Source: an uncultured delta proteobacterium (GTDB lineage: Bacteria > Desulfobacterota > Deferrimicrobia > Deferrimicrobiales > Deferrimicrobiaceae). From it: 64,000 nucleotides of DNA. A program made the position numbers and the translations under genes. Below, piece by piece: positions 45,029-48,073 of the stretch (the first letter of the stretch is position 1; each line of letters begins with the position of its first letter). The notes under the pieces are model-generated. The model was not told the DNA's origin. It was given only the letters and a program-made list of their open reading frames with translations, and did not search any database. The stretch covers positions 10,236 through 74,235 of the forward strand of contig CAVYRM010000001.1 in NCBI GenBank assembly GCA_963770975.1. The letters run 5' to 3'.

Positions 45029-45640
45029 ATGAGCGCACCTCTGACCCCGGCGCAGCGGCGGGTCCTCGACTTCCTCCGGGAGTTCGTGGAGAGCCGCCGG
45101 TTCGCCCCGACGGCCCGGGAAATCGCCGACCGTTTCGGCATCGCCGTGAAGAACGGCTTCTACTACCTGGAACTCCTGGAGCGGAAGGGGTACATTCGAC
45201 GCAAAAAGCACCACCCGCGCCGGATCGAGTTTACGGGAGAGGGCCTCTCCCGGCTTGCCGTGCGGGTCCCCGTCCTGGGCCGGGTTCCCGCCGGCGGACC
45301 GCGGGAAGCGGTCGAAGAGGTCCAGGGAGAGCTTCTTCTCGATCCCGACCTGGCGGGGGAAGGCGAGGTCTTCTTCCTGCGCGTTTCGGGGGACAGCATG
45401 ACGGGTGCCCACATCTGCGACGGGGATCACGTCCTCGTCCGCTCGCAGGCCTCCGCGGAAGAGGGGGAGATCGTCGTCGCCGTGATCGACGGCGAGGCGA
45501 CGGTCAAGCGGTTCCGCCGCGCGAAGGGGAAGGTCCGCCTCGAAGCCGACAACCCGGCCTATCCCCCCATCGAGGTGCCCCCCGGCTCTCCCGCCTTCCG
45601 GATCGCCGGAAAAGTCGTCGGCGTCTACCGGAAAATGTAG
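45029..45640 (+). CDS. lexA: LexA repressor (S24 peptidase)
   Basis: N-terminal wHTH LTPAQRRVLDFLREF...TAREIA, cleavage-site region VPVLGRVPAGGP, catalytic SGDSM and a conserved Lys in TVKRF. Confidence 0.92.
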   Translation: MSAPLTPAQRRVLDFLREFVESRRFAPTAREIADRFGIAVKNGFYYLELLERKGYIRRKKHHPRRIEFTGEGLSRLAVRVPVLGRVPAGGPREAVEEVQGELLLDPDLAGEGEVFFLRVSGDSMTGAHICDGDHVLVRSQASAEEGEIVVAVIDGEATVKRFRRAKGKVRLEADNPAYPPIEVPPGSPAFRIAGKVVGVYRKM

Positions 45641-45650
45641 GGGTCTTCCC

Positions 45651-46319
45651 GTGGGTTTCCTCGACATGGAGCGCGCCTCCTCCCTCTGCCTCTTCCCGCC
45701 CCCCGGGAAGATGGCGGGGATCTTCGGGGACGGGGCGTGCGGGCTCGCGCTTCGCGCGCTGGCCGTCCCGCTTCTTCGGGGCGAGGCGGTGGTGGCCGTC
45801 GACGGCGGGAACCGGTTCGACCCGTACGAGATCTCCGGGGCGGCCCGGGCGCGGGGAGGGGACGCCGGAAAGGCCCTCTCCCGCATCCGCGTCTCCCGGG
45901 CGTTCACCTGCCACCAGATGGAGGCGCTCCTGTCGCGCCGCCTGCCCGATGCCCTCGCCCGGTTCGACGCCCGGCTCGCCCTCGTCCTCGGGCTCCCCGA
46001 GACGTTCGCCGACGCCGACGTCCCGTACGTGGAGGCGTGCCGCATCTTCCGGAGCTGCCTCGCCGCGCTGCGGAGGCTTTCCCGCGCGGGAACGCGGGTC
46101 GTCCTCGTCGGGAAGGGGGAACCGCCGGAGAGAGGGGGGCATTATTCCGTGGGGCCCGTTCCCGCCGACCGGGCCGGGTTCTTCCGCCACCTCGTCCGGA
46201 CGTCGGATCCCGTTCTTCTCCTGCGCCGGGAAGAGCGCGGCCCGGCATGGGAACTGCGCCGGGAAGGGGCGCCGTCCGCCGGCGCGGCGGAAGCGCGGCC
46301 CGTGCGGGCCGGGTCCTGA
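45651..46319 (+). CDS. hypothetical RecA-fold-like protein lacking a Walker A lysine (SulA/ImuA-like by position)
   Basis: Starts 10 nt after lexA. GIFGDGACGLALRAL stands in place of a P-loop, followed by VVAVDGGNRFDP, LSRIRVSRAFT and LALVLGLPE strand-like motifs. Fold assignment is inference only. Confidence 0.45.
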   Translation: MGFLDMERASSLCLFPPPGKMAGIFGDGACGLALRALAVPLLRGEAVVAVDGGNRFDPYEISGAARARGGDAGKALSRIRVSRAFTCHQMEALLSRRLPDALARFDARLALVLGLPETFADADVPYVEACRIFRSCLAALRRLSRAGTRVVLVGKGEPPERGGHYSVGPVPADRAGFFRHLVRTSDPVLLLRREERGPAWELRREGAPSAGAAEARPVRAGS

Positions 46320-46322
46320 GAC

Positions 46323-46598
46323 ATGGGACGCACCGTCCTTCCCTTCACCCAGGAGCTCTACCGCGAGGAGGAGTCGTGGAGGGCTTTCCGGCGCGCCCTG
46401 CGGCGGGAGGACCGCGAGCTGCTCGACGCGCTGTTCGAGGCCGCCCGCTACCACACGGCGGCCTGCACCTGCGCGGGGAGGGCCGTCCCCTTCGACGCGA
46501 TCCTGATGGGGATCCTCATCGAGGAGCGCCGCGCGGCGCGGGACCTGGCGCGCAGGGTCGAGGAACTCGAGCGGAGGCTTACGGAGGCCATGTCATGA
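46323..46598 (+). CDS. hypothetical 91-aa helical protein
   Basis: Starts 3 nt after the previous stop. Its stop overlaps the next ATG (ATGA at 46595-46598). Confidence 0.45.
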   Translation: MGRTVLPFTQELYREEESWRAFRRALRREDRELLDALFEAARYHTAACTCAGRAVPFDAILMGILIEERRAARDLARRVEELERRLTEAMS

Positions 46599-48073
46599 AG
46601 AAGACCGGATTTCCGCGGTATGCCGTTGTCCTGCTCTGCATCCTCCTGGGTTCCTGCGCGTGCCCGACCCGGATCACCATCCTGCAGATGAACGACGTCT
46701 ACGAGCTGGACCCGGTGAGCGGCGGCAGGGAAGGGGGGCTCGCCCGGGTGGCCGCCCTGAGAAAGGAACTCCTGAAGGAGGATCCGAACACGCTGACCGT
46801 GCTGGCCGGCGACCTGCTCAGCCCCTCCGCCCTGGGCACCGCCAGGGTGGGCGGCGAGCCCCTGGCGGGGAAGCAGATCGTCGCGACGATGAACACGCTC
46901 GGGCTCGATTACATCACCTTCGGGAACCATGAATTCGACATCCCGGAGAAGAGCTTCCTCGATCGCCTGGCGGAGTCCCGCTTCACGTGGATCTCCAGCA
47001 ACGTCTTCGATTCCCGGAAGGCGGGTTTTCCCCGCGTCCCCGCGAACAAGGTCGTGGAGATCCGCGGCGCGGGAGGGGAGAAGGTCCGTCTCGGGATCTT
47101 CGGGCTCACCATCGACAGCAACAAGGCGGGGTACGTGACCTACGGGGACGTCATCGAAACCGCCCGGGCCCAGGTCGCCGACCTGCGCGGACGGGTGGAC
47201 ATCCTGGCGGCGCTCACGCACCTGTCGGTCGACCAGGATATCGCCCTGGCGCAGGCCGTACCCGGGATCGACCTGATCCTGGGCGGGCACGAGCATGAAA
47301 ACATGCAGTTCCGGCGGGGAACGGAGTACGTGCCCATCTTCAAGGCGGATGCCAACGCCCGCACCGTCTACATCCATCGGCTCCGTTACGACGCGCGGAG
47401 CCGGAAGATCTCGATCCGTTCCGAGCTGCGACGCGTCACCGGGGAGATTCCTCCGGATCCCGACACCTCTTCCACGATCCGGCATTGGCAGGAGCTCGGC
47501 TTCGCCGCGTTCCGCGCCGAGGGATTCCAGCCGGAACAGCTGGTGGCAAACATCCCCGAACCGCTGGACGGACTGGAAGCCGATGTTCGAAACGGATCCA
47601 CCGCTCTCACCCGCCTTCTCGCCGCCGCCGTGCTGGAATCCGTTCCCGGCGCCGAGCTTTCCCTCTACAACGCCGGCTCGATCCGGATCGACGACGTCAT
47701 TCCGCCGGGACCCCTGACGCAGTACGACGTGATCCGCATCCTTCCCTTCGGAGGGAGGATCTGCGAGGCGGAGATCGAAGGGGGGCTTCTTCGCAAGGTT
47801 CTCGAACAGGGGCGGGCGAACCGCGGTCAGGGCGGTTTCCTGCAGGGCGTGGGCGCGACGCGGGACGAGGCCGGCTGGAAGGTGAACGGCGAGCCGATAA
47901 CGGCCGGCCGGTCCTACCGTGTCGCGATCAACGATTTCCTCCTTTCCGGGAAGGAGCAGGGCCTGGGGTTTCTCTCGGAGAGTGCTCCCGGCGTGCGTTC
48001 GACCTGCCGGGAAAACAGCGACCTGCGGTTCATCTTCGGGGACCACCTGCGAAAGCGGTTCGGGGGCCGATGA
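46595..48073 (+). CDS. bifunctional metallophosphatase/5'-nucleotidase family lipoprotein (UshA-like)
   Basis: Lipobox-like LLGSC. MNDVYE, AGDLLSPS, GNHEFD and GGHEHE metallophosphatase motifs. C-terminal 5'-nucleotidase domain (ALTRLLAAAV..., INDFLLSG). Confidence 0.85.
   Translation: MKKTGFPRYAVVLLCILLGSCACPTRITILQMNDVYELDPVSGGREGGLARVAALRKELLKEDPNTLTVLAGDLLSPSALGTARVGGEPLAGKQIVATMNTLGLDYITFGNHEFDIPEKSFLDRLAESRFTWISSNVFDSRKAGFPRVPANKVVEIRGAGGEKVRLGIFGLTIDSNKAGYVTYGDVIETARAQVADLRGRVDILAALTHLSVDQDIALAQAVPGIDLILGGHEHENMQFRRGTEYVPIFKADANARTVYIHRLRYDARSRKISIRSELRRVTGEIPPDPDTSSTIRHWQELGFAAFRAEGFQPEQLVANIPEPLDGLEADVRNGSTALTRLLAAAVLESVPGAELSLYNAGSIRIDDVIPPGPLTQYDVIRILPFGGRICEAEIEGGLLRKVLEQGRANRGQGGFLQGVGATRDEAGWKVNGEPITAGRSYRVAINDFLLSGKEQGLGFLSESAPGVRSTCRENSDLRFIFGDHLRKRFGGR

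Follow-up and report, generated by a model that had tools for sequence, protein, structure and literature searches.

A LexA-headed PolB2 mutasome operon that has probably lost polB2 and acquired a nucleotidase gene in a Deferrimicrobiaceae genome

A four-gene cluster headed by lexA

We examined a lexA-headed gene cluster in a 64,000-nucleotide (nt) stretch of DNA, hereafter the window (forward-strand positions 10,236 to 74,235 of contig CAVYRM010000001.1, assembly GCA_963770975.1), from an uncultured member of the Deferrimicrobiaceae. Four genes follow one another on the plus strand: lexA (45029..45640), encoding an autoproteolytic repressor of 203 amino acids (aa); genes for a 222-aa protein (45651..46319) and a 91-aa protein (46323..46598); and a gene for a 492-aa lipoprotein metallophosphoesterase of the 5'-nucleotidase family (46595..48073). 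An initial annotation, made from the sequence, gave their coordinates and their spacing (10 nt, 3 nt, and a 4-nt ATGA overlap) exactly, and its picture of a tightly coupled, LexA-headed operon is supported. The second open reading frame (ORF) starts with GTG, and relatives have an equivalent start; an ATG five codons in would yield a 217-aa protein. A palindrome before lexA, GTATAGTAATATAC (GTAT-N6-ATAC; 45011..45024), is a candidate LexA operator. Our scan detected no plus-strand terminator-like site inside the cluster; one that follows it, a hairpin with a T-run at 48126..48155 (plus strand), aligns with relatives' loci L004 and L009, where it is kept 3' of polB2. Judging from this layout, the four genes are probably cotranscribed.

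The initial annotation suggested that the cluster may be an undescribed SOS module. It is not undescribed: lexA followed by an inactive RadA and a helical protein of about 90 aa is the front of the published PolB2 operon (PMC4104785; PMC11791011). We find it likely that the cluster is a remodeled, LexA-controlled PolB2 mutasome operon in which polB2 has been lost and a nucleotidase gene stands in its place, rather than a new SOS module.

PolB2, an inactivated RadA, and arCOG07300 were predicted to form one operon, headed by lexA in some bacteria (Makarova et al. 2014, PMC4104785). The two partners of the polymerase have since been named iRadA and PPB2 (Timinskas, Timinskas & Venclovas 2025, PMC11791011). 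According to the latter study, iRadA-PPB2-PolB2 is the single gene order found in bacteria, lexA is enriched there, and the operons are rarely "interspersed with other genes." In its modeled complex, PolB2 assembles with one iRadA and a PPB2 trimer; the polymerase binds iRadA via a motif resembling that of Rad51 oligomerization, and an N-terminal "MGRT" arm, defined as a PPB2 feature, enters the cleft between polymerase and iRadA (PMC11791011).

The 222-aa and 91-aa proteins are iRadA and PPB2

A Pfam scan assigned no family to the 222-aa protein, which gave weak but consistent sequence matches to RadA, RadB, and Rad51. Its AlphaFold2 (AF2) model, based on an alignment of 25 homologs, reached a predicted local distance difference test score (pLDDT) of 84 and a predicted template modeling score (pTM) of 0.83. 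When this model was compared with PDB structures in Foldseek, the top 50 matches listed were all RadA/Rad51/Dmc1-type recombinases or RAD51-paralog complexes (best E 6e-11, top matches to 6e-9; template modeling scores of 0.6 to 0.7). The motifs pointed out by the initial annotation (VVAVDGGNRFDP, LSRIRVSRAFTCHQ, LALVLGLPE, and GDGACGLAL) are present and conserved across homologs. phmmer aligned the last of these with the P-loop of RadB, GPYASGKTT (2cvf), and none of the 25 aligned homologs has Lys or Thr at the Walker A Lys/Thr position. The claim of a RecA/Rad51-type fold without ATPase motifs is thus borne out by alignment, model, and structure search. In the alignments, the 222 aa cover only the C-terminal ATPase domain of RadA structures; the N-terminal helical domain of RadA (oligomerization/DNA binding) is missing, and in the model just a single short helix precedes the first core strand at the N terminus.

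The proposed analogy to SulA or ImuA fared differently. Neither the SulA (PF03846) nor the ImuA models of Pfam and NCBIfam matched the window protein at E≤1, nor did they match ten distant iRadA homologs at E≤0.1; on the strength of the family scans and the fold search, we rejected an assignment to SulA, ImuA, or KaiC. The 222-aa protein belongs to a family of 1,236 representatives at 50% identity (E≤0.001), and its orthologs in relatives (63 to 88% identity) lie between lexA and PPB2-polB2; in the window, PPB2 follows and polB2 is absent. We conclude that it is iRadA, an inactive Rad51/RadA-fold accessory subunit of the PolB2 mutasome.

The 91-aa protein begins with MGRTVLPFT, that is, with the MGRT arm, and its first five residues, M1-G2-R3-T4-V5, do not vary among 20 sequences that include relatives at class and phylum level. 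It is 82 to 90% identical to DUF8156 proteins of relatives, orthologs for which a match to PF26485 (DUF8156) is precomputed; the window protein had no PF26485 match in our Pfam scan, a model that is probably missing from that copy of Pfam. Its AF2 model (pLDDT 83) consists of an unstructured segment (residues 1 to 7) and three helices (8 to 24, 28 to 51, and 57 to 90), and a Foldseek search of the PDB with it returned nothing significant. The last ~4 to 8 codons of the gene are remodeled by the junction with the nucleotidase gene. Because the MGRT arm, the three-helix model, and the gene context in relatives match the published operon, the 91-aa protein is PPB2 (arCOG07300/DUF8156), the small helical partner of PolB2, just as the 222-aa protein is iRadA.

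Relatives carry polB2 at the same chromosomal site

Contigs of relatives carry lexA, the RecA-fold gene, the DUF8156 gene, and a gene for a family B DNA polymerase of 727 to 777 aa. Several of them share the flanks of the window locus, with FecR upstream and DctP-DctQ-DctM and an oxidoreductase downstream, and polB2 comes after PPB2 in dozens of Deferrimicrobiaceae relatives with these flanks. With the exception of L121, polB2 follows PPB2 wherever downstream DNA is covered, either directly or past a gap or an inserted gene. The RecA-fold gene is present in 22 and the polymerase gene in 23 of 27 other genus genomes, and the two adjoin wherever the contig is long enough. The gene order that the initial annotation singled out therefore recurs as far as lexA-iRadA-PPB2, but the fourth gene in relatives is polB2, not a nucleotidase; a nucleotidase gene directly after PPB2 was found only in the window and in two metagenome contigs, which have polB2 or its remnants downstream.

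The polymerase of the relatives is PolB2-like. Its best PDB match is archaeal PolB (E 1e-47, versus 6e-9 for Escherichia coli Pol II), motif C has LTD in place of DTD, and there is hardly any alignment over the exonuclease region. Most PolB2 proteins of the genus have an in-frame insertion of ~21 aa near residue 247 relative to the L004 enzyme (for example, G002:C4:114909-117119), seen as split matches within one open frame; going by residue number only, it lies near 253-DK-254 (Sulfolobus islandicus numbering) of the iRadA/PPB2-binding loop in the published model.

Break points and probable intermediates at the PPB2-polB2 junction

BLASTN homology between the window and polB2-bearing relatives (L004, L009, and others) stops at 46574 to 46587 and resumes at 48098 to 48105. 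The segment without a counterpart (46588..48097) sits in the polB2 slot and amounts to the nucleotidase ORF plus less than ~25 nt on each side.

A scan of metagenome contigs with the nucleotidase retrieved two contigs, L026 and L027, that carry the same operon with a nucleotidase 78 to 81% identical to that of the window; the closest nucleotidase in a large protein set is 78% identical. L027 has FecR, lexA, iRadA, PPB2, the nucleotidase gene, and the start of polB2, where the contig ends, and all its frames are open. In L026 (920-4100), lexA and the nucleotidase gene are intact while iRadA, PPB2, and polB2 are riddled with deletions: a 410-nt deletion has produced a 168-aa in-frame fusion of iRadA residues ~1 to 110 to PPB2 residues ~34 to 97, and four internal deletions totaling ~1 kb have removed motif C from polB2. 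The alignments flanking these polB2 deletions overlap by 8 to 25 nt. In both contigs, a piece of ~25 nt from the overlap of the PPB2 end and the polB2 start is present on both sides of the insert. A simple gene-for-gene replacement of polB2 was our first reading of the window; it was revised since the nucleotidase gene lies upstream of polB2 in L026 and L027. The three operon-borne nucleotidases form one clade (92% support), and orthologs sited elsewhere fall outside it. Exact-protein look-ups returned no independent copy of the window junction.

Other genes are found at the same junction in other loci. In another clade, a hybrid sensor histidine kinase gene is inserted between PPB2 and polB2 (L124:4477-7152), and L121 (4374-8266) has genes for a GGDEF protein and a hybrid kinase at this position, with no polB2 within the 4 kb covered. 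Such insertions agree with the published remark on rarely interspersed operons (PMC11791011).

The nucleotidase

The 492-aa protein has the Metallophos and 5_nucleotid_C domains, both above the Pfam cutoff, and a lipobox, LLGSC. Its score against the NCBIfam UshA equivalog is 83, versus a cutoff of 600, and its best PDB relative is the 5'-nucleotidase of Thermus thermophilus; it belongs to the 5'-nucleotidase/metallophosphoesterase superfamily and to no characterized equivalog. Motif I (residues ~28 to 36) reads NDVY, with Tyr for the His of NDxH, and the GD, GNHEFD, TH, and GGHEH motifs are kept. The DVY variant looks like a subfamily-wide feature, since LQMNDVYE was among six query peptides that retrieved >500 confirmed relatives. 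This subfamily seems to be large and common also in cyanobacteria and Desulfobulbaceae.

The nucleotidase gene did not belong to the module ancestrally: relatives that share the flanks have polB2 in fourth place, and the nucleotidase gene is a secondary insert in the operon. Its ribosome-binding site, GGAGG, lies 7 nt 5' of the start codon, inside the end of PPB2. LexA-dependent expression of the nucleotidase is plausible in view of what the locus provides: the operon promoter and operator, the terminator, and this ribosome-binding site.

In other lineages, nucleotidase orthologs lie beside a gene for a receiver::LpxC fusion (G008, L028, and L029) or in unrelated contexts; in L023 (G008:C86), L028, and L029, the ortholog is directly upstream of the fusion gene. 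The window has a receiver::LpxC gene of its own (41212-42507), only ~2.5 kb upstream of lexA, so that both nucleotidase positions belong to one chromosomal neighborhood. Local relocation of the nucleotidase gene from beside receiver::LpxC is not established, given the orthologs in unrelated contexts.

LexA and its candidate operator

The window LexA scores 194.7 bits against the NCBIfam equivalog TIGR00498 (cutoff, 110.95) and has the Pfam domains PF01726 (LexA_DNA_bind, a winged helix-turn-helix) and PF00717 (Peptidase_S24). Nearly all members of the genus have a single lexA, always adjoining iRadA. We surveyed the distinct lexA upstream regions drawn from loci L001 to L140 and the window: all 35 of them have the 14-bp GTAT-N6-ATAC palindrome, ending 4 nt 5' of the lexA ATG, and its inner positions 5 and 10 covary palindromically (A...T or G...C). 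This conservation makes the palindrome the probable binding site of LexA. It overlaps −10-like hexamers, and the A of the lexA ATG is about where transcription would start. The overlap and the 4-nt distance to the ATG suggest a leaderless or near-leaderless, autorepressed lexA mRNA.

A position-specific scoring matrix built from these sites found no second strong operator in the 1.5-Mb genome to which the window belongs. In genus members whose sites were listed, the strict GTAT-N6-ATAC form occurs once per genome, at the lexA promoter only. A wider LexA regulon was rejected, the operon's own operator being the sole strong match; taken at face value, this distribution implies that the predicted LexA regulon is one operon.

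lexA-iRadA-PPB2-polB2 is a presence/absence unit

Most genomes of the genus that lack the cassette also lack lexA. G004, which is 97% complete, has no lexA, iRadA, or polB2; G001 likewise has no lexA; and the one lexA homolog of G026 is distant, with 43% identity. In G001 (C3, L155) and G004 (C196, L154), two small lipoprotein genes are all that lies at the syntenic site between the FecR/hydrolase gene and DctP; L004 has the same two downstream of polB2. The corresponding site of G026 (C113, L156) is also syntenic. Since members of the genus without iRadA and PolB2 also lack the cassette lexA, lexA-iRadA-PPB2-polB2 is one self-regulated accessory cassette that is present or absent as a unit.

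G009 has two complete cassettes (C12 and C45), each with its own operator, and hence two lexA genes. In other loci, DNA-damage genes were noted next to the cassette. A methylpurine DNA glycosylase gene (window 42542-43126, minus strand) lies two genes upstream of the cassette in the window and in close relatives, and in L007 a gene for an SRAP (abasic-site) protein (4639-5310) is directly upstream of lexA; an enrichment of SRAP is also noted in PMC11791011.

Probable loss of polB2 and its alternatives

These observations fit the following course of events. The original operon is a self-contained, damage-inducible translesion-synthesis cassette that came to bacteria from archaea. According to the published model, LexA represses it at the operator over its own promoter until DNA damage leads to RecA-stimulated self-cleavage of LexA and transcription of the operon; PolB2, an exonuclease-dead B-family "extender" polymerase, then assembles with one iRadA and a PPB2 trimer. 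In the simplest history, a nucleotidase gene would have inserted at the PPB2-polB2 junction, and loss of polB2 would have followed, piecemeal in L026 and by a clean, complete deletion in the window, where an extra small deletion may have given rise to the ATGA overlap and cut back the final codons of PPB2. The remaining lexA-iRadA-PPB2-nucleotidase operon would thus lie between the original promoter/operator and the original terminator, and the locus most likely makes both accessory subunits without their catalytic partner and therefore would not support PolB2-type translesion synthesis. Through translational coupling (ATGA overlap, GGAGG), an exported nucleotidase may have come under LexA control and could be induced by DNA damage.

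Several observations weigh against this reconstruction or complicate it. In a tree of lexA-iRadA-PPB2, the window does not group with L027, and the left junction of the window is unlike that of L026 and L027; neither fits a single insertion neatly, and the history must include either later recombination between strains or a second event. We found no polB2 elsewhere in the assembly, which is 64.75% complete, and at that level the gene may lie elsewhere in the genome. iRadA and PPB2 of the window are intact, with a single otherwise invariant residue changed (PPB2 S63G). Nor did the two genes show relaxed selection specific to them. In crude branch estimates of omega (NG86 distances, 31 distinct loci, triplet decomposition), values on the window branch and on ingroup paths were 0.27 and 0.21 for lexA, 0.31 and 0.20 for iRadA, and 0.19 and 0.125 for PPB2: all three are slightly raised in the window, lexA included, all are far below 1, and iRadA and PPB2 show no specific rise over lexA. 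Since iRadA and PPB2 bear no specific sign of decay, recent loss of polB2 and retained function both fit.

Retained function is the core of an alternative that we consider unlikely, namely, that lexA-iRadA-PPB2-nucleotidase is a repurposed SOS operon kept by selection after the loss of polB2. The nucleotidase would be its damage-induced payload, used, for instance, to salvage nucleosides from extracellular nucleotides or DNA, and iRadA-PPB2 would act independently of PolB2, perhaps with the sliding clamp, RecA, or the single Y-family polymerase of the genus. The intactness of iRadA and PPB2, whose omega on the window branch is well under 1, would agree with this, as would the retained ribosome-binding site and translational coupling of the nucleotidase gene and the survival of lexA and the nucleotidase gene in L026 while its mutasome genes were deleted piecemeal. 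There is also a parallel in haloarchaea, which have extra two-gene iRadA-PPB2 operons without a polymerase (PMC4104785). However, the exact state of the window occurs in one genome only, omega is raised equally in lexA, and intact genes are also expected after a recent deletion. The nucleotidase family, moreover, is not known to be linked to DNA damage, and the sister lineage represented by L026, in which iRadA and PPB2 are destroyed, can do without the accessory genes after damage to the polymerase.

That the mutasome is in fact complete, with polB2 or a second full cassette in the unassembled ~35% of the genome, seems decidedly improbable. The completeness of the assembly leaves room for it and G009 sets a precedent for two cassettes, but every polB2 of the genus and family with enough flank lies just downstream of the iRadA gene on the same contig, and here the syntenic slot is filled by another gene. 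We regard it as very improbable that the nucleotidase segment was misjoined into the operon during assembly or binning. The source is a metagenome-assembled genome, which makes such an error conceivable, but each junction lies only a few bases from an ORF end, the contig is 326 kb long and its flanks are syntenic to the left and right, and two independent metagenome assemblies have a related nucleotidase at the same position of the operon. Least credible of all is the reading of the initial annotation, a SulA/ImuA-like checkpoint or mutagenesis protein in a new SOS module with a salvage nucleotidase. A RecA-superfamily fold without ATPase motifs beside lexA does recall such proteins, but no SulA or ImuA match appeared even at E≤1, the relatives of the protein are RadA, RadB, and Rad51, and its orthologs are embedded in the published iRadA-PPB2-PolB2 operon. 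We therefore favor loss of polB2; most likely, the locus is a dispensable mutagenesis cassette caught in the course of its decay.

Relation to known mutagenesis systems

The window locus shares with the bacterial PolB2 operon its lexA, an inactive RadA, a ~90-aa helical PPB2 with the MGRT arm, and the single bacterial gene order, and relatives have the complete operon at the corresponding place in the chromosome. It differs in that the locus, and the partial genome around it, lack the polymerase gene, and a nucleotidase gene is translationally coupled to PPB2 instead.

The imuA-imuB-dnaE2 mutagenesis cassette is often headed by a dedicated lexA, and in this it is like the self-regulated cassette of the genus. 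Both are LexA-headed, self-contained mutagenesis cassettes with a RecA-fold protein that lacks ATPase activity, and the window LexA likewise appears to control little beyond its own operon. The protein families are nevertheless unrelated: nothing matched ImuA, ImuB, or DnaE2, the RecA-fold protein belongs to the Rad51/RadA branch, and relatives have a B-family polymerase. With E. coli Pol V (UmuD'2C-RecA), an analogy already drawn for the PolB2 mutasome (PMC11791011), the operon has in common LexA control and the combination of a polymerase, a recombinase-fold subunit, and a small subunit with an N-terminal arm at the active site; Pol V differs in protein families and stoichiometry and uses the cell's active RecA.

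In S. islandicus, a radA-like gene and arCOG07300 are coinduced with Dpo2 (PolB2) after DNA damage (PMC7390963; PMC8764526). The accessory genes are homologous to those of the window, and the first Asp of motif C is substituted, as in the relatives' polymerase (LTD). The Dpo2 system is regulated via Orc1/Cdc6-type factors, however, not by LexA, and the window keeps only the accessory genes.

Implications

The main value of these findings lies in annotation: two "hypothetical" genes beside lexA in Deferrimicrobiaceae encode iRadA and PPB2, subunits of a mutasome for which nearly all knowledge to date comes from comparative genomics and modeling. Should iRadA-PPB2 be functional without PolB2, this would point to a new activity of the accessory subunits, and a repurposed operon would mean both a polymerase-independent role for these subunits and SOS-induced salvage of extracellular nucleotides. 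The PPB2-polB2 junction is a landing place of foreign genes, and the loci form a natural series: the full cassette, the cassette with an inserted gene, the cassette with its polymerase deleted or decayed, and absence of the cassette together with lexA. The PolB2 mutasome is therefore a dispensable, self-regulated accessory module in this genus.

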